Positions 4,604 to 62,721 of a stretch of 64,000 bases of DNA are shown piece after piece. The DNA comes from Escherichia phage vB_EcoM_G4507: the sequence record NC_054919.1. One strand, written 5' to 3'. The translations under genes were made by a program, and so were the position numbers. Numbering within the stretch: position 1 is the first letter of the stretch; each line of letters opens with the position of its first letter. Under the pieces are notes generated by a model. That model saw only the letters and a program-made list of their open reading frames with translations. It had not been told where the DNA came from and ran no database searches.

Positions 4604-4968
4604 TTAAATTTAATGGCTTGAAGAAGACTAATAATTCTCAAACGGCTTCTTTCATCTTTAACTGTAAAAGAAAGAGGGTCGCCAGATTTCATAGTAATAG
4701 TGCATTCAAAATCTTCTGTGACTTCTTCGAAGAAGTCAAATTCTTCATCATAAATTAGAACACTACTTTGCAGACTGTGAAGAGTTTTTCCAGCATTTCT
4801 GCTAACTGCTGTACTAATCATTGTAACATTATGACCTTTCATATCTTCAACGATAAATTCACTAGTCAATATTACAGCATTAATAGAACTATTCCTATTA
4901 CTAGCAGAAAGTAGAAATTTCTTTTCTTCGCCTTCGCGAATACGATACTTCTTACCAATTTTAAACAT
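4600..4968 (-). CDS. hypothetical protein
   Basis: 122-aa ORF, 4-nt overlap with downstream gene. Confidence 0.55.
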   Translation of the reverse strand: MFKIGKKYRIREGEEKKFLLSASNRNSSINAVILTSEFIVEDMKGHNVTMISTAVSRNAGKTLHSLQSSVLIYDEEFDFFEEVTEDFECTITMKSGDPLSFTVKDERSRLRIISLLQAIKFK

Positions 4969-4970
4969 AA

Positions 4971-5147
4971 TTACCCTTTAAGTAAGTCGTAAAATCCACC
5001 ATTCACATGCTTAGGAGCAGAAGGCCGACGAGTAGACAAACGATGACATTTAGGACAAACATCATTTTCTCGTTCAGAAATCTTTTTAATTTTTTCATAT
5101 TCATGCCCGCAATCTTCGGATTGGCATTTATAATCATACATTGGCAT
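4971..5147 (-). CDS. small zinc-ribbon protein (two CxxC pairs)
   Basis: 58-aa ORF found by hand (below track cutoff): MPMYDYKCQSEDCGHEYE...CPKCH; AAGGA RBS 7 nt upstream; fills gap between flanking genes. Confidence 0.45.
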   Translation of the reverse strand: MPMYDYKCQSEDCGHEYEKIKKISERENDVCPKCHRLSTRRPSAPKHVNGGFYDLLKG

Positions 5148-5149
5148 AA

Positions 5150-5575
5150 TTATTCCTTAAAATGTGCTTTCAGCATCTGATACAAAGACCATGCCTGTTC
5201 ATTATTTTCAATAGTAACTTTCATGACCGGGAATTCTGTGAAATCTTCTATTTGTTCTTGCTCTTTCTCTTCCTGCTCTTGCTCTTCGGCTGCCTGGTAT
5301 GGATTTTCCACTTCATCAAAGAACGCAGCTTCGCTCGTTGAAAGCCAGATAAAATCTTCATCCAAAATATCTTTACCAGAAGATAACGCCAATTTTCCAC
5401 TAGATGTCACAATTTTAGTAGGACGACCAAGATAGTCAATATCTGTAACTCTAAAAGGTTCCATACCAAGACGACGTGCATAAATTCCATTTTCAGTATG
5501 GTCCTTGATAAAATTTTCTTGAGCTTGTTTATTTTTAAATTGATACCATTTATTAACTTCAAATTTAGTAGCCAT
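5150..5575 (-). CDS. hypothetical acidic protein (position and 141-aa size fit T4 goF, not verified)
   Basis: 141-aa ORF with acidic [12 protein letters not shown] tract. Confidence 0.6.
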
Positions 5576-11781: not shown

Positions 11782-12384
11782 TTATAGATTAAATCCTTCA
11801 AAATCAAGAGTATAGATAGTGTATGTTGAATACTTTTTGTACTCATATCTATCTGCAATTCTAAATACGCTTCCAGCTGGTATCATTACTTCTTGTTCAT
11901 CTGAAACTAATTCCATATTACGATAACGATGACTATCCGGAAACTTAAAGTTTGGATTGTATTCTTTGCACCGTAAAGCTTTTATAGCATACTCCTGGAA
12001 ATTGAATACCATAGGAGCTTTGAATTCAAAAATAACTTGTGTGTTATACTCTAAACCGGAAGCAAAATGTAGAGCTATATTTTTATCATATGAAGCTGAT
12101 ACTACTTTATCAAATGTAATAATATCAATTCCTTGATTTAATACTTGTTTAGTCTCAGCTGGAACACCTCTCCAAAGAGGTTTATCGTTTGGAACCAAAC
12201 GAGATTTGATTATTTCATTTAACCAAGTATGGTCATCTGGTTTATTAGTAATACAATGAATTAAAAGTTCAATTTCAGATAAATTAAACCCTTCAGAAAG
12301 TAATTCTTCACGAATAGAAGCACGCACCGATGCATCCATTGATTTTATTTTAAAATCTTTTAGTTGCATTACTGAGTATTTCAT
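11782..12384 (-). CDS. modA: ADP-ribosyltransferase ModA
   Basis: 200 aa; adjacent paralogous pair matching T4 modA/modB sizes and order. Confidence 0.8.
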   Translation of the reverse strand: MKYSVMQLKDFKIKSMDASVRASIREELLSEGFNLSEIELLIHCITNKPDDHTWLNEIIKSRLVPNDKPLWRGVPAETKQVLNQGIDIITFDKVVSASYDKNIALHFASGLEYNTQVIFEFKAPMVFNFQEYAIKALRCKEYNPNFKFPDSHRYRNMELVSDEQEVMIPAGSVFRIADRYEYKKYSTYTIYTLDFEGFNL

Positions 12385-13004
12385 TCAACTACCTCAATAT
12401 CATAAACTTTAAATGTTCCAAATGAATCGTGTAATTTTTCTTTTGAAATAGAAGTTATTTTGTACTTTCCAATTGGAATCATCCATTCTTGTTCATGCAC
12501 AATCATCATTAAGTTATCAGTACGCTCTGAATCTAATCCATCAGTATCTTCATATGTATACTTAAACTCAGTATTAGGAGAAGAAAGTATAATATCGCTG
12601 ATATGGTCAGAGTAATTAAAAGCTTTATCAGTTTTTAAACGAAGTATTGTTTCAGTGAAATATTCAGCATAAGAAAAAGAACACGCTGTATGCAAACTAG
12701 TAGTAAATGAATCTACCCTGTTCGTTGAAAACACTTCTCCAACTTGTAAATCTTTAATAAGTTCTTTTGTCGATTTTGATATACCACGATATAATTGATA
12801 AGGCGATTTAGTTAAATGCTTTTTAATGATTTTATTCAACTGTCTGTGAAGAGCTTCATTCTTTTTGGCTTCCATACATTGCCAAAGAACTGACTGCTCA
12901 AAGTCAGTAAATTTTTCACAGACCTTTTTATACATATCATATTGAAAATCAACGCTTTCAGCTTTTATAGATAACTGTTCAACATCTGCAAGATTAATAA
13001 TCAT
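12381..13004 (-). CDS. modB: ADP-ribosyltransferase ModB
   Basis: 207 aa; 4-nt overlap with modA. Confidence 0.8.
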   Translation of the reverse strand: MIINLADVEQLSIKAESVDFQYDMYKKVCEKFTDFEQSVLWQCMEAKKNEALHRQLNKIIKKHLTKSPYQLYRGISKSTKELIKDLQVGEVFSTNRVDSFTTSLHTACSFSYAEYFTETILRLKTDKAFNYSDHISDIILSSPNTEFKYTYEDTDGLDSERTDNLMMIVHEQEWMIPIGKYKITSISKEKLHDSFGTFKVYDIEVVE

Positions 13005-53654: not shown

Positions 53655-54112
53655 TCAGCCTTATATTCAATAACAGGACATACTTTAGCTTTACGAGCTT
53701 TTAAAAATTCAACGATAATCGATTTCTTGGATTGAATAGGAGTTAAACCTTTATACGCCCTATCAATATTTTCTACGTGTAAAGCATAATCCTTTTTCCA
53801 TTTATAATCTTTATATTTTTCACGCAAATGTGCAGGAATAACAAATGAACTGATAATAAGTAAAACAACCAAAAGCGCAAGTATAAATGCCGATGGAAGA
53901 AGAGTCCATAAACTGCCAAAAATAAACCAACGCTGTAGGCTTTCTGCACAAATAATTGTTAGTCCTACGAGTATAGCACATCCAAAAATAGAAACGAAAA
54001 ATGTAGGAATAACAATAGACCAAAAATACGCGCATAGTGTCTTAGGTCGTTGCCATTCATCGTTAAACAATTTGAATAATTTATAGTGCCAAGAGTTTTC
54101 ATTAATAATCAT
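53651..54112 (-). CDS. integral membrane protein
   Basis: 153 aa with about three hydrophobic helices. Confidence 0.6.
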   Translation of the reverse strand: MIINENSWHYKLFKLFNDEWQRPKTLCAYFWSIVIPTFFVSIFGCAILVGLTIICAESLQRWFIFGSLWTLLPSAFILALLVVLLIISSFVIPAHLREKYKDYKWKKDYALHVENIDRAYKGLTPIQSKKSIIVEFLKARKAKVCPVIEYKAE

Positions 54113-54114
54113 AA

Positions 54115-54636
54115 TTATCCTTTCATTGAAGGCGTAACGGTTGTTAAATACTTAATCATAGCTTCAGCTTCTGATTTTGATAATGAAATTTCTCCATTGT
54201 TTTGACGAATAGAAATAAAATCCGGATGACGGTCACCACCAGCTTTTAAAACGCACATATAAGTATCAACTTCGCCTTCAATATTTGAAATGATTGAAGC
54301 AGTTCCACATGAATGTGGTTTTTGATAAATCAATACAGCTTTTCTTCCACCGTTTGACTGTTCATAGGCTTTTAATACATCAAGCAAATCAGTTCTTTTA
54401 TCAATAGCTAAAATGTTATTTTCATCTTCAATGTTAAATCCTTCGGATACTTCATAAAGTGTTACCCATAAATCACCGATGTCAATAACAGCATTTACTT
54501 TTCCACGACTTTCAAGAGTATGACAAATTTTCTTGATTTCGTCATAACTCATTTTAATAATATCATCTCCTTGACTAAGGAAGATGTCATTTTTAAATTC
54601 AACACGAATTAAACCGCTTCCACTTGAAATAAACAT
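54115..54636 (-). CDS. hypothetical protein, paralog of 54643..55197
   Basis: 173 aa; C-terminus EAEAMIKYLTTVTPSM resembles neighbour. Confidence 0.6.
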   Translation of the reverse strand: MFISSGSGLIRVEFKNDIFLSQGDDIIKMSYDEIKKICHTLESRGKVNAVIDIGDLWVTLYEVSEGFNIEDENNILAIDKRTDLLDVLKAYEQSNGGRKAVLIYQKPHSCGTASIISNIEGEVDTYMCVLKAGGDRHPDFISIRQNNGEISLSKSEAEAMIKYLTTVTPSMKG

Positions 54637-54642
54637 ATTTCC

Positions 54643-55197
54643 TCACTTTGAAATCATAGTTGGAATAACAGAATCAAGATAAGTCTTTAGTGCAATAGCT
54701 TCGTCTTTGGTAAATGTGACAATATGTGCTCGAGAATCATCAATTTGGCGAACAAGTACGACATCGCCATCTTCATAAGAAGTCTTGACATCCAAAGTCG
54801 TAGTATAATTTGCAGCTACTGGATTAATAATGCTAGCACCGCGATCTTTAGCCCATTGAAGTTTAGCCTTTTCGGGTGTTTCGATTGTTTCAGATTCCAA
54901 GAATTCTTTCACCTTGGTAACGAATGTTGCCCAATTGTTGATAGAAAGACACATAAATTCAGTTTCAATATTACCGCCGTAAAGGCCACGATAAAAACGA
55001 ACTTGGAGGTCGCCTGTAATATTAGTTACACCGGTAACTCCTGAGGGAGCATAAGATAAAATCGCAGCCAGTTCCATAGGAAGAATAGTAATACTATCGT
55101 CTTCCTGCGTCAGAACGTATACATTATCACGTTTTTCGATAACCAGGTCACCTAACAAATCAGTTGTTTCAATTACAGCTTTCATATTATTTACCAA
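54643..55197 (-). CDS. hypothetical protein, paralog of 54115..54636
   Basis: 184 aa; C-terminus DEAIALKTYLDSVIPTM. Confidence 0.6.
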   Translation of the reverse strand: MVNNMKAVIETTDLLGDLVIEKRDNVYVLTQEDDSITILPMELAAILSYAPSGVTGVTNITGDLQVRFYRGLYGGNIETEFMCLSINNWATFVTKVKEFLESETIETPEKAKLQWAKDRGASIINPVAANYTTTLDVKTSYEDGDVVLVRQIDDSRAHIVTFTKDEAIALKTYLDSVIPTMISK

Positions 55198-55372
55198 TTA
55201 AAGTTTCAATATAAGAATCAAGATTTACTTTAGCTTCTTCCATAAGAGTTTTGTATTTAATCTTGTTAGCATGTCCGGAGAAAGCTGATTCATCAATAAT
55301 TGTTGATGTATGAACAGCTCTACTATACGTCTCAATTAATTCTCTTAATTTAAAAGCCTGCTCACTTGTCAT
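55187..55372 (-). CDS. hypothetical protein
   Basis: 61-aa ORF with AAGGAG RBS. Confidence 0.5.
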   Translation of the reverse strand: MTSEQAFKLRELIETYSRAVHTSTIIDESAFSGHANKIKYKTLMEEAKVNLDSYIETLIGK

Positions 55373-56383: not shown

Positions 56384-56770
56384 TTATTCGAGGGAAAGAA
56401 GATACTTACTCTGGTAAAACATTCCAGTAATATCATCTATCGTGCTTTGAATGGCTGGAGGCATTTCTTTATAAATGCTGTTAGATTGGTCTAGTATGCG
56501 ATCAATCATTTTAATTGTGTCGGTAGGAAGTTTACTGGCATCTGGAATTGAAGGCGTGTATTTTCTACCAGAATACCCCAAATATTGCTCACCAAATTTA
56601 TCAATCAAATCTGGCAATTCGGAGAAAATAAAATCGTATGCTTTGTGTCTAGCATAACTTTTAGTTTCAAAATGCGCAGAATGAAAATAAGCTTGTGCAG
56701 CCATTAATAAACCTAAGTATTCATCTGCCTTTGAAGGTTTTCCACTTTGTGAAAAGTCGCTGAATTTCAT
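56384..56770 (-). CDS. hypothetical protein
   Basis: 128-aa ORF. Confidence 0.55.
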
Positions 56771-57060
56771 TCAGTCTCCAATTTAATGTTCATAATTCTA
56801 GTGTATGATTGTGCCATCTCCGCGCCTCGTTCTATACATTCGAAATCAGAAGAGCACGGGTCATTTTTATAGGTCGTTCTCATAAAACTATAGAACTGTT
56901 CAGATGATTCTACGCTTTTATTTTCAAAAAGCATATAAACATGTCTAATACCAGATTCCATAAATTTATCAAAATGAGGATCGACATTCGCTTCAATTGG
57001 TGGAGATAAAGCAAATGACAATCCTAGCATGGCAAATAGTGCCGTTGCTTTTAAGGCCAT
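56767..57060 (-). CDS. rI: lysis inhibition regulator (antiholin) rI
   Basis: 97 aa with signal anchor; MALKATALFAMLGLSF...DPHFDKFMESGIRHVYMLFENKSVE matches T4 RI. Confidence 0.9.
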   Translation of the reverse strand: MALKATALFAMLGLSFALSPPIEANVDPHFDKFMESGIRHVYMLFENKSVESSEQFYSFMRTTYKNDPCSSDFECIERGAEMAQSYTRIMNIKLETE

Positions 57061-57072
57061 AAAGGCCTCCTA

Positions 57073-57285
57073 TCATTTTTGTCCTGTATTTACTTTATGC
57101 CGATGCACGGCCTTAACTTTATCAAGGTATTTTTCAAAATTTCGCAATCTAGTATAGTCTGCCGGAGATTGGTTGAGTGATACTTCTCGACGCAAAGCTG
57201 AAATGATATTTCCAACTTCCCTACGAATTTCATCTAATTGAAGCACAGTAAGATTGCGAAGTTGCTTTTCAGTTAATTGTAGCAT
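57073..57285 (-). CDS. hypothetical protein
   Basis: 70-aa ORF. Confidence 0.5.
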
Positions 57286-57327
57286 ATATACCCCTTTAGT
57301 TAGATAAACCTATTTATAACTTTTGCA

Positions 57328-57909
57328 CTAACCGAGCTTTTTAGTTAATTCGTTCCAGTGTTTTCTACACAAAGAAACATAAATTTCATCACCAATACAG
57401 ATTTGATTACCTTCTTTAACTGGTGTTCCATCTTCCATTAATCGAGCTGTCATAATCGCTTTTTTGCCGCAATGACAAACTGCCTTTAGTTCAATAAGTT
57501 TATCTGCAATCGCTAAAAGTTCTTTAGAACCTTCAAACAATTTTCCAGCGAAATCAGTCCTTAACCCATAAGCCATAACAGGAACATTATATGTATCAAC
57601 AATTCGACTCAATTGATGCACTTGTTCAGTTTTTAAAAACTGGGCTTCATCTACAAATACGCAATGAATATCTTTTTGTGCTTCAGCCCATTTATAGAAC
57701 TCGAAAATATCCATATCATCTGTAATAATATTCGCTTCCTGTTTAATTCCAATGCGAGAAACAACTTCACAGACAGAATCACGAGTATCAATAGCAGGCT
57801 TAAGAACTAATACACTCATTCCACGTTCTTTATAATTATGTGCAGCAGTCAAAAGAGAAGCAGATTTTCCAGCATTCATTGCTGCATAAGTAAAAATTAA
57901 ACTCGCCAT
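57328..57909 (-). CDS. tk: thymidine kinase
   Basis: 193 aa; P-loop AAMNAGKS; zinc ribbon CHCGKK...CRKH. Confidence 0.93.
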   Translation of the reverse strand: MASLIFTYAAMNAGKSASLLTAAHNYKERGMSVLVLKPAIDTRDSVCEVVSRIGIKQEANIITDDMDIFEFYKWAEAQKDIHCVFVDEAQFLKTEQVHQLSRIVDTYNVPVMAYGLRTDFAGKLFEGSKELLAIADKLIELKAVCHCGKKAIMTARLMEDGTPVKEGNQICIGDEIYVSLCRKHWNELTKKLG

Positions 57910-57910
57910 C

Positions 57911-58099
57911 TTAGTCCTTAGTTAAATTTTCTAAATATGTTTCTAAATCATTTTCAGCTTTATCGATAGATTTTACTAATTCGTAATATGTTTCGGCATC
58001 TCCATATTCAGAAGATATTTCAAAAGACAAATCCTTTTCTAAACTAATAATTTCACCAACTAAAAATAATATTTCGTTCTTTTGTTCGCGAGTAATCAT
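57911..58099 (-). CDS. hypothetical protein
   Basis: 62-aa ORF. Confidence 0.5.
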   Translation of the reverse strand: MITREQKNEILFLVGEIISLEKDLSFEISSEYGDAETYYELVKSIDKAENDLETYLENLTKD

Positions 58100-58281
58100 A
58101 AGGAATTTATATAATCAATGAGTTCTTGTTCTTTATTATCAAATTCTTTGGAAAGTTCTTCATATTCATTTGCGCTAAAAGGACCGCATTCATTACAAAC
58201 TTTTTCCAATTCACTATTTTTATCCATAATTTCGTGGATAAGAGAAAAGAGTTTGTCTTTTTGTTCTTTGCTTAGGCTCAT
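58096..58281 (-). CDS. hypothetical protein
   Basis: 61-aa ORF. Confidence 0.5.
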   Translation of the reverse strand: MSLSKEQKDKLFSLIHEIMDKNSELEKVCNECGPFSANEYEELSKEFDNKEQELIDYINSL

Positions 58282-58447
58282 ATATTAATTTCCAGAAGTT
58301 TTAAAATAATTCGCTTTTGCTTAAATATTTCCACAGTTAAATGATCAGTATCTTTTTGACCAATTCCAATGGCAAAACCTTTATTAACAGCGAGTTCAAT
58401 TAAATTATCAAGTTCACGTAACACTTCATATTGTAACTCAGAACTAT

Positions 58448-58675
58448 TCATTTCGGTTTACCTTCTTTAACGAAATCTGGATAAGGATAAAATCCCGAAT
58501 AAAATCCTTCACCTTTATGATTGATGCATCCTTTATTAGAACAATAGCACCAATAATCGAAATCACAAGCCATTTCATCGTTACATAAAGCAAAAACAAC
58601 CGGCCACTTACACTTTTCACAGTGGGCATTTTTAAGAATACTAGTTTGGCTCATAACCATGTAACCTTTAAGCAA
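58448..58675 (-). CDS. cysteine-rich small protein
   Basis: 75 aa, 8 Cys; overlapping 58444..58629 in other frame rejected. Confidence 0.5.
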   Translation of the reverse strand: MLKGYMVMSQTSILKNAHCEKCKWPVVFALCNDEMACDFDYWCYCSNKGCINHKGEGFYSGFYPYPDFVKEGKPK

Positions 58676-58863
58676 TATTCTTCTACATGTTGTTTACGAC
58701 CTTTCTTATCAATAAAGGTATATTCAACGAATGTTCCAATGTAGTCTTTATCTACATCATGTGGACTATTAATTGGGCATTTAGTACGGCAAATGCGTTC
58801 CCATTGACGAATAATTACTGCTTTGTTTTTAGGATCAAACGGATGTGGGTAATGTACTTTCAT
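58651..58863 (-). CDS. hypothetical protein
   Basis: 70-aa ORF. Confidence 0.5.
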   Translation of the reverse strand: MKVHYPHPFDPKNKAVIIRQWERICRTKCPINSPHDVDKDYIGTFVEYTFIDKKGRKQHVEEYCLKVTWL

Positions 58864-59314
58864 AATCCACCACTATTAAATCAATATCAGGAGTAAACAT
58901 GTCGATTAATTTAGAAACCTTATCCCAATCGCCGCCAGCAATACCACAACCTATACGTGGAATGTAAATTACTGGTTTAAACAAAAGGGTTTCTGCCTGT
59001 AGATTTAATTCTATCATGCAGTTTACTAAAGCACCATAATCAAGATTAGGACCTGGTTCGTATTGCGTATACAAGTTATAACATATGCCAAACCCATTAG
59101 GTTTATGTTTAAAAACAATAGACATATCGCCTAATTTATCACGAGAACCGTACTCAGTAGTGGTTTTATCTATTTCTAAAATTTTGGGATAGGCTCTTGC
59201 TAATTGACCAGCTACACCACTGCCCATTGTATGAAAACAGTTACACCCGTGCGCAATAATATTACCTTCAAGAAAGAGGGCGACAATATCGCCCTTGATA
59301 TATTTTACAATCAT
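58835..59314 (-). CDS. macro-domain protein (predicted ADP-ribose binding/processing)
   Basis: 159 aa; GDI...IAHGCNCFHTMGSGVAGQ and IPRIGCGIAGGDWD resemble macro-domain motifs. Confidence 0.6.
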   Translation of the reverse strand: MIVKYIKGDIVALFLEGNIIAHGCNCFHTMGSGVAGQLARAYPKILEIDKTTTEYGSRDKLGDMSIVFKHKPNGFGICYNLYTQYEPGPNLDYGALVNCMIELNLQAETLLFKPVIYIPRIGCGIAGGDWDKVSKLIDMFTPDIDLIVVDYESTLPTSV

Positions 59315-59658
59315 CTAGTACTCAATCCTCGATTATAAGAATCTACTAAACGGTCAACCATTGAATGACAAGCGGCTTTATCTTTTTCCTCCGCAACTGA
59401 ACATTCTAGGGTATTCCACTTTTTAGCATATCGTTTTAATAATGTATCGTTTTTGTATCTGCTTGATTTATCTCTTTCTCCGTCTTTATATGCATATATT
59501 AATTTCTGCGCAAATTCAGCTTGGCATGCTTTATTTTTCCCGCAATAATCTGCCGCAGTGCGGTTCACATACTCCCTAATTTCAGTATATGATGTATCTG
59601 CTGACGCATAAGCAGAAAATGAAATTAATCCTATACATAAAACCAAAATTTTAGTCAT
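59311..59658 (-). CDS. secreted hypothetical protein
   Basis: 115 aa with signal peptide MTKILVLCIGLISFSAYASA. Confidence 0.6.
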   Translation of the reverse strand: MTKILVLCIGLISFSAYASADTSYTEIREYVNRTAADYCGKNKACQAEFAQKLIYAYKDGERDKSSRYKNDTLLKRYAKKWNTLECSVAEEKDKAACHSMVDRLVDSYNRGLSTR

Positions 59659-60196
59659 TTACTATTTCCAAAAGTTTATTATTTTTAAGGTAATTAGCCT
59701 TTTCTAGGACTTCAGAAGCATATTTAGAACCTGCTTTAACATTCCATCCCGAATTATAAGAGGATATTGCTTTTCTTATATCGCCCTTATGTATATTTAA
59801 CCAATAAGAAAGTTCAATGTACGCCCAGGAAGCTGAATTGGATCGTTTATTCAACATTCTTTTTATTTCAGCATCGGTCATATTATAACCAAGTTCCTTA
59901 ACTCTCGCTCGCATAGTAGGCAAATAATTTTGGAACATTCCGTAAGCATGATGTTTTGGTTTAGATTTTAAATTAACTCCGCCAGAGCTTTCTTGCCATA
60001 AAATAGCAGCCATTATATGACCTAATCCGCTCTTGTGGATATTTTTGTGTGTTTTATATTTTCCATCCTTAGAAAATTGTTCCCCGAATTGATACGCGTA
60101 ACGCATGTTATCGAGTTGGACATTACTGAAAGTATGCTCGGAGCTATGTGCCATCATTGAAATGGCCAATAGACCAGCGAGTAGTGCTTTTCTCAT
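59651..60196 (-). CDS. secreted lytic-transglycosylase-like protein
   Basis: 181 aa; signal peptide; SLT-like motifs LWQESSGG and YGMFQ. Confidence 0.6.
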   Translation of the reverse strand: MRKALLAGLLAISMMAHSSEHTFSNVQLDNMRYAYQFGEQFSKDGKYKTHKNIHKSGLGHIMAAILWQESSGGVNLKSKPKHHAYGMFQNYLPTMRARVKELGYNMTDAEIKRMLNKRSNSASWAYIELSYWLNIHKGDIRKAISSYNSGWNVKAGSKYASEVLEKANYLKNNKLLEIVND

Positions 60197-60203
60197 GTTT
60201 ACC

Positions 60204-60665
60204 TCATTGAGTTTTAATTACTGCTTTAGAAGCCTTTCCTGGTAAACGACGACTGTTGATAATTGCCATCCTACATTGAAGTGACGGGTCTTTGAACTTC
60301 TCATTAGGTTTACAAACTGTAAATCCAAGCCAAAGATTTCCATCTGTAATTTCTAAACGTCCAGGACGATATTCAACTCCATCAATAAAATCCTCATCAA
60401 TGTCAGGACGCGGAGGCATACTCAGGAATTCATTAACTTCTAAAACATGGTCTTTTATTTTATGGAATAATTCAAAAACATATGTCTCATCAATCTCCCG
60501 TTGAATTGCACGATCAAGAAGATGTTGAGAATATTTTAGATGAAACGATGAGACCCCTGCTGCTTTTGATGCCTCACGAATCTCATTGTTAATTTGACGA
60601 AACTCCGACTCAAAGTGACGACGAAGCTTATTTCGACGGATAAAAACTTCTGTATTGATAGTCAT
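60204..60665 (-). CDS. regB: endoribonuclease RegB
   Basis: 153 aa; size and position match T4 RegB. Confidence 0.85.
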   Translation of the reverse strand: MTINTEVFIRRNKLRRHFESEFRQINNEIREASKAAGVSSFHLKYSQHLLDRAIQREIDETYVFELFHKIKDHVLEVNEFLSMPPRPDIDEDFIDGVEYRPGRLEITDGNLWLGFTVCKPNEKFKDPSLQCRMAIINSRRLPGKASKAVIKTQ

Positions 60666-60692
60666 GTTATTCTCCTCTTAACTGATAGAAAA

Positions 60693-60722
60693 ATTATACC
60701 ACAGTCAAGAGGAAAAGTAAAC
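60693..60722 (-). promoter_or_regulatory. early-type promoter upstream of regB (GTTTAC -35, TATAAT -10)
   Basis: Minus-strand motif. Confidence 0.55.
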
Positions 60723-60796
60723 AGTTATTCTTTAAATCTAATCAATTTATTCATAGACTTTGAAACTTCTGCACGAACCTCATGTAAGTTTTTAAG

Positions 60797-61045
60797 CTAT
60801 TCAAGACGCTGCGTATAGTAAGCAATTTCATCTTCTTCGAGACAGTCCTGTGAATCTTCTTTAAGATAACGTGCATAGTCCTGAAAAGCTTTACGGACTA
60901 CTTCCTGGAAGTCATCAAGACTTTGAATTTTCTTAGGAGCGGCAGATACACGACGAGGTGCAGTATAATACTCATAACCAAACCCTGCACTTAATTGAGC
61001 CATTAGTATTTTTCCTCTGGTTGGAACACTGCACGACAAGCCCAC
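60797..61045 (-). CDS. hypothetical protein (vs.3-like)
   Basis: 82-aa ORF. Confidence 0.5.
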
Positions 61046-61305
61046 ATACTGGCTTCTTTGAGTTTCGTTTTAGCAATAGTTAACTGATCGAGGCTTTCAG
61101 CATAATTCTTCGCGAGTTCATCATCTTCACAGCTATCAAATGCTTCCCAAAATTCATCGTATAAAGCATCAAAGATAAGTCCTAAACGAACTTCAGCGTC
61201 TTTGATAGCATTCACTTTACTGATTTTCTCTTCGGTATGCGGCTTATAACCCTTAATATCTTCAATCATATTTGACTTCCTCACCAGTACATAAATCATA
61301 TTCAA
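61003..61305 (-). CDS. hypothetical helical protein (vs.4-like); start uncertain
   Basis: 100-aa track ORF overlapping upstream gene. Confidence 0.5.
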
Positions 61306-61483
61306 CTAAACGAATAGGTTCATGAATGCCATATCCCTGAACAGAAATTTCTGTCGTGGGATAAATTCCATCAATATCACCCATATTCCAGGCTTCATTA
61401 AATTGCTGTTCGCCTGAATTACTAAACCACTCGGCGAAAGCATTTAGCACATCTTCAGAACCTTCAATAATTATCTTTGCCAT
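61262..61483 (-). CDS. hypothetical protein (vs.5-like)
   Basis: 73-aa ORF. Confidence 0.5.
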   Translation of the reverse strand: MAKIIIEGSEDVLNAFAEWFSNSGEQQFNEAWNMGDIDGIYPTTEISVQGYGIHEPIRLVEYDLCTGEEVKYD

Positions 61484-61845
61484 TACAAACTCTCGGTGAA
61501 GGTACGAGCGATAACGTCGCGCTGCTGTTCCGGAGTCAGAGAGTTAAAGCGAACTGCATAACCGGATACACGGATGGTCAGCTGCGGATATTTTTCCGGA
61601 TGCTTAACTGCATCTTCCAGAGTTTCACGACGCAGAACGTTAACGTTCAGGTGTTGACCACCTTCAATTTTAACTGTAGGTTGTGTTTCAATTTCAATTT
61701 CACGGGCATGCAAACCGTAGAAAATTTCCGGGTCTACAAAAGAGTCCTCTTTAAAGGTTTTAGAGACAATAATTCGTGCTTGAATACCATCTTCAAAATA
61801 AATAGTACCTTTATGTGTGCCTTCAAGAATTTGATATGCTTTCAT
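61483..61845 (-). CDS. autonomous glycyl-radical cofactor (GrcA/YfiD-like; T4 Y06I-like)
   Basis: 120 aa; C-terminal ~60 aa including [31 protein letters not shown] match E. coli GrcA as recalled; 3' half markedly GC-richer than flanks. Confidence 0.8.
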
Positions 61846-61852
61846 ATAAACC

Positions 61853-62182
61853 TCAATTAGAAAATAAATTTATCCAAGATTGTTCTTTAATTAAAAACGG
61901 CTCAGAATCATATGCCATTAAACTTTGCGTAATTAATCCTTTAAAAGGTCCATCAATAAATTCCATGGTAAAATATGGAATTTTATTCATTAGCCGTGCA
62001 TTAGGAGCAGTACATAAAACTCTGCATCCTTTGAATACACCTTTTTGTAATTTGTATTGCTTGGGATAAAATTCGCTCAAAATGTTATTATTTGCTAAAA
62101 TTTCAAAATGATTCACCAATTTATTTTTAATAGTTTTTGGCGAAAAATAAAGATATTCGAAAAGTTGCGTATCTGTCATCAT
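61853..62182 (-). CDS. hypothetical protein
   Basis: Start at MMTDTQ giving ATGA overlap with upstream gene. Confidence 0.5.
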
Positions 62183-62721
62183 TGCATTCCAATTACGAAA
62201 AACTGCGGACGAGTAATACCACCAATACAGCATTTACTATTGCAGCAATATTGCACAGTTTCAATATGAATATCGTAAATTTTATCCATATCAGGAGATT
62301 TAACAGGCTCATCGATTATATACAAAATTCGAGAAAGCGATAAACCTCTGAACTTGCTACCTCTATTACCAACAAAACTACGGACAGAATCAGTAAATAA
62401 ACGGAATCGAATATCATCGCTAGAATAACGAGAAAATTCTTTTTTAATGCGGCCCACAGAAATTTTAGCGTAAGCTGAAGTATTAGAAAGAACAATAACT
62501 GTTCCACCATCATACAACCAATTAGCGGCAAAATTAGTTGCTGCAGTTGATTTACCGGATTGTCTGCCACCATCTAAACGAAGTGTACAATATTCTTTAA
62601 ATAAATACGACGAATCAGGTACATAAAATCCACTATTACAAATTTCTTCTACTCTAGCGTCAGAATGGTGTGTAAAAGCATTCATCAGGGATAGATAAGG
62701 ACCAGTTAAAAATGTTCTCAT
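62179..62721 (-). CDS. small P-loop NTPase
   Basis: ~180 aa from MRTFLTGPY; Walker A GGRQSGKST, Walker B ILYIIDEP; Cys-rich C-terminus. Confidence 0.55.
   Translation of the reverse strand: MRTFLTGPYLSLMNAFTHHSDARVEEICNSGFYVPDSSYLFKEYCTLRLDGGRQSGKSTAATNFAANWLYDGGTVIVLSNTSAYAKISVGRIKKEFSRYSSDDIRFRLFTDSVRSFVGNRGSKFRGLSLSRILYIIDEPVKSPDMDKIYDIHIETVQYCCNSKCCIGGITRPQFFVIGMQ

Follow-up and report, generated by a model that had tools for sequence, protein, structure and literature searches.

The tk.4 locus and its neighbourhood

The window analysed here is a stretch of 64,000 nucleotides of Escherichia phage vB_EcoM_G4507 (NC_054919.1). On its minus strand, an ORF starting with ATG at 58835..59314 is a gene of the tk.4/adfM type, encoding a single-domain macrodomain protein of 159 aa. 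The ORF is found exactly as quoted in the initial annotation, with its GDI motif (residues 8-10) and the stretches IAHGCNCFHTMGSGVAGQ and IPRIGCGIAGGDWD, and its strand, on which that annotation was silent, is given by the ORF listing. The largest of the plus-strand ORFs lying under tk.4 is 44 aa long, and none of them is a competitor of note.

The genes follow each other on the minus strand in the order regB, vs.1, vs, the tk.4 ORF, tk.3, two small ORFs, tk.2, tk.1, and tk. The regB gene (60204-60665, minus) matches the Pfam family REGB_T4 with about 230 bits, and tk lies at 57328-57909 (minus). The vs.1 homologue (59651-60196) carries an SLT domain and the tk.3 homologue (58651-58863) a DUF7202 domain. 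In the T4 reference, the gene standing between vs and tk.3 is tk.4, described as "phosphatase; contains A1pp phosphatase motif". The same window includes the ModA gene (11785-12384, minus, 99% identity to T4) and the ModB gene (12384-13004, minus, 98% identity to T4), arranged in tandem with a one-base overlap. The initial annotation, which had situated the ORF in the tk-regB region of a DNA also encoding ModA and ModB, agrees with these coordinates and identities.

Over the 2.7 kb surrounding the tk.4 ORF, the identity is 100% with Escherichia phage ECP52 and 96-99% with hundreds of Tequatrovirus genomes. The ORF is labelled "hypothetical protein" in the ECP52 record, and GenBank already holds a protein identical to the Tk.4 of the window. 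In the same ECP52 record, the vs.1 homologue is called "endoribonuclease", yet Pfam assigns it an SLT lytic-transglycosylase domain, and the tk.3 homologue (DUF7202) is called "putative ABC transporter ATP-binding protein"; both labels look like annotation-transfer errors.

The two small minus-strand ORFs between tk.2 and tk.3 (window 58278-58675) encode products of 57 aa (PHROG 3452) and 75 aa (Pfam PF23895 "phage zinc binding domain", PHROG 2306). T4 possesses neither of them, the blastn comparison of the window with T4 leaving a gap at 58283-58649. Further along, window 53656-55360 and T4 56450-57816 align in short pieces only, and the T4 mobD homing-endonuclease region appears, from this alignment, to be replaced or absent in the window.

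Both ends of tk.4 overlap a neighbouring gene. The stop codon of vs and the start codon of tk.4 share an ATGA sequence (59311..59314, minus; ORF coordinates and sequence), an arrangement that is identical in T4, and translational coupling from vs to tk.4 through this overlap is likely. At the other end, the 3' end of tk.4 overlaps the start of tk.3 by 29 nt (58835..58863, minus; DNA alignment and ORF coordinates). This overlap and the tail added to the protein are due to a 13-nt deletion relative to T4; the tail, residues 157-159, is disordered, with a pLDDT below 50 in the AlphaFold2 (AF2) model.

A candidate early promoter, TTTACT-17-TATAAT with TG, is located upstream of regB (60693..60721, minus) by a consensus scan only, in a region where promoter-like sites are not more numerous than in shuffles. 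It could drive regB-vs.1-vs-tk.4, and tk.4 is probably co-transcribed early with regB-vs.1-vs. The T4-type Tk.4 protein was detected in T2-infected cells (bioRxiv 10.64898/2026.06.19.733364). A RIL-seq report describes a contact between the host sRNA ArcZ and the T2 tk.4 transcript, and a "terminator" feature is placed under tk.4 in one GenBank record. A GC-rich hairpin of 8 bp (AGGGCGAT-ATT-GTCGCCCT, 59277-59295) is found within 40 nt of the tk.4 start, in the coding sequence and just inside the stretch shared with T4, the divergent block described below starting immediately 3' of it. This hairpin was rejected as a regulatory RNA or terminator, being not exceptional against shuffles (z -1.55) and having no Rfam match; indeed, an Rfam search of 56500-62500 at E <= 1 returned zero matches.

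Fold and macrodomain class

The protein matches the Pfam family PF01661 (Macro) with an E-value of 6.2e-8 and 33.1 bits for a gathering cut-off of 22, over profile positions 2-117 of 118 (116/118), which is far beyond chance. A sequence search of the PDB retrieved BT1257 (E 1.9e-10) and Poa1p (E 1.8e-9); it yielded no solved structure of the window Tk.4 itself, the best match, BT1257, being 26-29% identical. The AlphaFold2 model, built with 64 homologues, reaches a mean pLDDT of 94.2 and a pTM of 0.89, with disorder limited to the last three residues, and displays the three-layer alpha/beta/alpha macro fold. The top Foldseek match of the model is TARG1 (E 1.4e-9, TM 0.73-0.82), and its nearest structural neighbours belong to the ALC1/TARG1/DarG-like class, clearly apart from the MacroD, viral Mac1, and PARG types. 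A profile of the Tk.4 family matches BT1257 (9e-20), TARG1 (1e-16), SCO6735 (3e-15), and Poa1p (1e-14), as well as the macrodomains of DarG (2e-11 and 2e-9). The best NCBIfam and PADLOC models for the window protein are both DarG, for the macro part only. The window Tk.4 is a macrodomain of the ALC1/TARG1/DarG-like class. The macrodomain call of the initial annotation is thus borne out by the Pfam score, the AF2 model, and the TARG1 match, the profile search and structure prediction having been the checks proposed there. The family is large, with 6219 clusters at 50% identity for E <= 1e-3.

Conserved loops and active site

Two loops predicted by alignments to bind ADP-ribose can be recognized. 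The first one, IAHGCNCFHTMGSGVAGQ (residues 20-37; 59204..59257, minus), lines up with the corresponding loop in TARG1 and BT1257. Its residues H22, G23, N25, C26, G33, and A35 are invariant in an alignment of 64 sequences, and its columns are kept in 249-257 of 258 homologues. The codon of N25 occupies 59240-59242 (minus), and the column is shared with N23 of the PhiKZ AdfM protein, whose N23A mutant displays a reduced activity (PMC13309987). The second one, IPRIGCGIAGGDWD (residues 118-131; 58922..58963, minus), is the predicted diphosphate-binding glycine loop. Its aligned counterparts are PRIGCGLAGGKW in BT1257 and SCO6735 and PRIGCGLDRLQW in TARG1; P119, G122, G124, and W130 never vary, A126, G127, and G128 hardly do, and A126 stands at the position of Asp125 of TARG1. 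Among the 258 homologues, N25 is conserved in 255, Y82 and D49 in 256 each, H22 in 249, G33 in 257, and G122 and G124 in 253 each.

The active-site position is occupied by Gln84 (codon 59063..59065, minus), present in all 256 homologues aligned there. In profile alignments, this column corresponds to the catalytic K84 of TARG1, to Lys80 of DarG from T. aquaticus, and to the Gln of the NMIGQ motif of BT1257. The whole family thus resembles SCO6735 in having a Gln as its catalytic-position residue, where DarG and TARG1 have a Lys. When the C-terminal half of the protein was queried against the PDB, the glycine loop alone aligned with SCO6735, so that the equivalence of Q84 to Gln85 of SCO6735 is drawn from the alignments with BT1257 and TARG1 and from what PMC9411070 states. 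That study equates Gln85 with the catalytic Lys of TARG1/DarG and shows that its replacement (Q85A) abolishes activity, and the mechanism is likely water-mediated with the Gln in a positioning role (PMC9411070). SCO6735 clears dT-ADPr, leaves dG-ADPr in place, and protects E. coli against DarT (PMC9411070). Since Q84 replaces the Lys of DarG/TARG1, the chemistry of Tk.4 is probably of the Gln- and water-dependent kind proposed for SCO6735.

A mobile loop longer by about five residues is characteristic of the SCO6735/BT1257 subclass and was proposed as the source of the high DNA activity of both proteins (PMC9411070). In BT1257, a 6-residue insertion follows the Gln, which is missing from the window Tk.4, T4 Tk.4, and TARG1.

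A divergent allele in a conserved background

The ORF occupies the slot between vs and tk.3 and is homologous to T4 Tk.4 over its full length (58% identity over 155 aa, zero gaps, E 4e-70), and is thus its orthologue. Both proteins share the locus, the length class, and the invariant motifs including Q84; they differ by the extension of the window C-terminus into tk.3 and by an identity of 58% in a background that is 96-100% identical to T4, with 99% for vs, 96% for tk.3, 97% for tk.2, and 100% for tk.1. T4 tk.4 is located at 4923-5390 of the T4 locus used for comparison.

Sliding identity along the DNA alignment delimits the divergence sharply. The identity to T4 is 97-100% across vs and the first 30 nt or so of tk.4, falls to about 33-82% in a divergent cassette (58864..59285, minus), and is back to 95-100% at the start of tk.3. 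Base composition gives no signal of a recent foreign origin in the divergent block, the GC content (0.35-0.38) being like that of the flanks. Proteins sharing 90% identity or more with the window allele occur in 317 phage records, and those equally close to T4 Tk.4 in 224, with a further 159 at 80-90%; T2 has the T4 allele. The allele groups are 54-60% identical to each other and equally distant from the versions of Salmonella, Yersinia, and Klebsiella T4-like phages. More widely, Tk.4-like proteins are found in 2772 phage records, including 293 Salmonella, 184 Pseudomonas, 137 Vibrio, and 93 Acinetobacter phages.

Most of the substitutions between alleles are outside the strictly conserved active-site motifs. 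The second glycine loop reads GCGIAGG in the window allele and in the family consensus, against GAGIGKG in T4, in which a Lys stands in the diphosphate loop where 240 of 258 homologues have a Gly. Judging from these loops, the T4 enzyme may be less typical than that of the window. To go by the alignments, tk.4 looks like a swapped cassette, both allele types being common among sequenced phages, and such a replacement would fit a pattern typical of counter-defence loci.

Tk.4, AdfM, and related macrodomains

A match of tk.4 orthologues to A1pp, the macro domain, was reported in 2006 (PMC1524935). Homologues are referred to in public phage records as "phosphatase", "macro domain protein", or "Poa1p-like", and "phosphatase" is also the label used by PHROG 335 and RefSeq. 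In a 2026 preprint, T2 tk.4 is wrongly called a "putative thymidine kinase". According to a preprint of November 2025, tk.4 was the sole significant match when a T4 transposon library was used on E. coli carrying DarTG2, and a clean tk.4 deletion makes T4 sensitive to DarTG2; the gene was therefore renamed adfM, for anti-DarT factor Macrodomain (bioRxiv 10.1101/2025.11.20.689424). Among the defence systems reported in this preprint, T4 tk.4 was significant on DarTG2 only, and the structural similarity of T4 Tk.4 to M. tuberculosis DarG was noted. The evidence for T4 is genetic and comes from this preprint, in which the hydrolysis of DNA-linked ADP-ribose is a proposal. The trial of a knockout phage on hosts with ADP-ribose-based defences, suggested by the initial annotation, has in this way been carried out for T4. 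The tk.4/adfM gene and its macrodomain were thus already known, and the additions made here, namely the divergent-allele cassette and the Gln catalytic position, are minor.

The name AdfM was given independently to two remotely related proteins, T4 Tk.4 and PhiKZ gp104, the latter removing DarT2-made ADP-ribose from DNA in vitro (Cell Rep 2026, PMC13309987). Like Tk.4, gp104 is a single phage macrodomain with an Asn equivalent to N25, but it carries a DarG-like ...FPTK... motif whereas the Tk.4 family has ...LYTQ..., and it is imported into the phage nucleus. A close relationship was rejected, as the translated gp104 construct gives a BLASTP E-value of 0.001 over 23 residues and scores 32 bits with the profile of the Tk.4 family. 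Judged by sequence, T4 Tk.4 and PhiKZ gp104 are functional analogues in one fold class, not members of one sequence family. ICP1 AdfB was likewise discarded as a relative, being a 77-aa DarT binder and not a macrodomain (PMC11481870).

The proteins SCO6735 of Streptomyces coelicolor and BT1257 of Bacteroides thetaiotaomicron are stand-alone ALC1-like macrodomains with a Gln and no TARG1-type Asp, as in Tk.4. They differ from it by their mobile loop, 5-6 residues longer, and by an identity of about 26-29%, Tk.4 being moreover phage-encoded. Human TARG1/OARD1, which removes dT-ADPr and U-ADPr (PMC13036486), has the same loop length as Tk.4 after the catalytic position but possesses a Lys84/Asp125 dyad in place of Q84/A126 and is about 20% identical. 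DarG (T. aquaticus, M. tuberculosis) is more distant: the window protein scores 27.8 bits against the equivalog model NF048014 of NCBIfam, whose cut-off is 250, over model positions 2-142 of 338. DarG includes a C-terminal DarT-binding domain and is adjacent to darT, neither of which is found in the window, where the neighbours of tk.4 are vs and tk.3, and its catalytic residue is a Lys (Lys80 in the T. aquaticus protein) instead of Gln84. The longer members of the Tk.4 family were considered as true DarG proteins with a Gln and dismissed, since they score 60 bits at most, below the cut-off of 250.

Yeast Poa1p, an ADP-ribose-1''-phosphate phosphatase, acts on a small-molecule substrate. The residues probed in its structures are reportedly His23, Ser30, and Phe152. 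In the alignment with Tk.4, H22 faces His23 and T29 faces Ser30, and the Phe152 region lies outside the alignment. The similarity to Poa1p is about as strong as that to SCO6735, and therefore the choice of substrate cannot be read from homology alone.

Function of Tk.4

Fold, class, motifs, and orthology are what the present analysis itself establishes for the window protein; the activity and target of T4 Tk.4 are extended by inference to this 58%-identical allele. On this basis, the ORF is probably tk.4 (adfM) acting as a free-standing early macrodomain ADP-ribosyl glycohydrolase that counters DNA ADP-ribosylation by DarT2. A firmer wording is not adopted because the activity is deduced from homology for the window allele and is a proposal for T4. 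In the mechanism envisaged, infection would release the host DarT2 toxin, which would ADP-ribosylate thymidine in phage single-stranded DNA, so that replication stalls. Tk.4 would then use N25 and both of its glycine-rich loops to bind the ADP-ribose, Q84 would position the distal ribose, and hydrolysis of the ribose-thymine N-glycosidic bond would restore the DNA and allow replication to proceed. Speaking against this explanation are the absence of the Lys of DarG/TARG1 and of Asp125 of TARG1, replaced by Q84 and A126, and that of the longer mobile loop, together with the identity of no more than 58% to the T4 protein, the genetic nature of the T4 evidence, and the similarity to Poa1p. The initial annotation had suggested a counter to ADP-ribose-based immunity. 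The area was rightly chosen; the mechanism was not, as what T4 Tk.4 is documented to counter is the ADP-ribosylation of DNA by DarTG2 and not a diffusible NAD+-derived signal.

Other explanations can be considered, starting with the suggestion, also made in the initial annotation, that the protein regulates the modification by ModA and ModB. Tk.4 would in this case erase the ADP-ribose, or the ADP-ribose-linked RNA chains, put on host proteins by Alt, ModA, and ModB, and so tune the take-over of the host. Both mod genes are indeed present in the same window (11785-13004), and both gene sets stand in early regions. However, arginine is the residue modified by Mod and Alt (GenBank notes and established knowledge), a linkage wrong for a class whose characterized activities concern thymidine and uracil N-glycosides and Glu/Asp esters (PMC9411070, PMC13036486). 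In a survey that covered ModA/B, without Alt, homologues of these enzymes occur in 1009 phage records against 2772 with Tk.4-like proteins; they include 30 Salmonella phages only, and Pseudomonas, Vibrio, and Acinetobacter are outside their ten commonest host names. With the significance of T4 tk.4 on DarTG2 only, this makes such a regulatory role very improbable. A hydrolase of small molecules is unlikely too, whether an ADP-ribose-1''-phosphate phosphatase, an O-acetyl-ADP-ribose deacetylase, or a degrader of Thoeris-type cyclic ADPR isomers. The "phosphatase" labels of PHROG 335 and RefSeq and the similarity to Poa1p point to it, and such side activities are frequent among macrodomains in vitro, so that small-molecule turnover may be a side activity of Tk.4. 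Nevertheless, the label derives from the old name of the A1pp domain and not from an assay, DarTG2 sensitivity is the only phenotype known for the orthologue, and a literature search found no macrodomain hydrolase of Thoeris signals.

The two remaining explanations stay closer to DarT2. Protection could be conferred mainly by stoichiometric binding of DarT2 or of its DNA substrate, and not by hydrolysis. Catalytically dead SCO6735, DarG, and TARG1 do inhibit DarT in vitro, an effect called "interaction-inhibition" (PMC9411070), ICP1 AdfB counters DarT through binding alone (PMC11481870), and the location of the allele substitutions, mostly outside the active-site motifs, would suit a blocker, for which allele divergence would mean co-evolution with toxin surfaces. 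By contrast, the active-site residues are almost invariant in 258 homologues from many phage groups and from bacteria, which argues for selection on catalysis, and Tk.4 is devoid of the C-terminal DarT-binding domain of DarG. A contribution from non-catalytic binding is plausible, whereas binding as the main mode of protection is improbable. Little weight is given, finally, to a broader de-ADP-ribosylase of nucleic acids directed at the product of another transferase, such as uracil-linked ADP-ribose on RNA, DarTG2 being then one of several systems countered. TARG1, DarG, and SCO6735 also clear uracil-linked ADP-ribose from RNA (PMC13036486), and some bacterial members of the very large family are free-standing genes without a DarT in the vicinity; against this, a literature search found no bacterial defence that ADP-ribosylates uracil. 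The reversal of mRNA ADP-ribosylation by CmdTAC was considered in the same context and discarded, as this system, which modifies mRNA adenines, defends strongly against wild-type T4 (PMC11618068).

Implications for T4-like phages

The cassette pattern and the Gln position can be joined in a tentative proposal, possible but rather doubtful as a whole, according to which tk.4 of T-even phages would be a hot-swapped counter-defence cassette and its family would descend from free-standing bacterial macrodomains of the Gln type, not from a captured DarG. One free-standing bacterial homologue, from Pelagimonas, is surrounded by housekeeping genes and has no DarT in its vicinity. If the first part holds, the alleles may differ in the DarT2 variants, or in the other nucleic-acid ADP-ribosyltransferases, that they neutralize. 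If the second part holds, Tk.4 would have an SCO6735/BT1257-like ancestry and a lysine-independent mechanism, with a short loop that is new to biochemistry.

If the DarT2-countering reading of Tk.4 is right, a T4-like phage would carry an enzyme of the kind that bacteria use as the DarTG2 antidote, that is, a direct phage counter to DNA ADP-ribosylation. This is already known for T4, and the window adds a very different allele, about as common in sequenced phages as that of T4. The Gln position is relevant to the chemistry of thymidine de-ADP-ribosylation, and both the allele and the Gln would matter for generalizing the T4 result and for predicting the resistance of phages to DarT2 variants.
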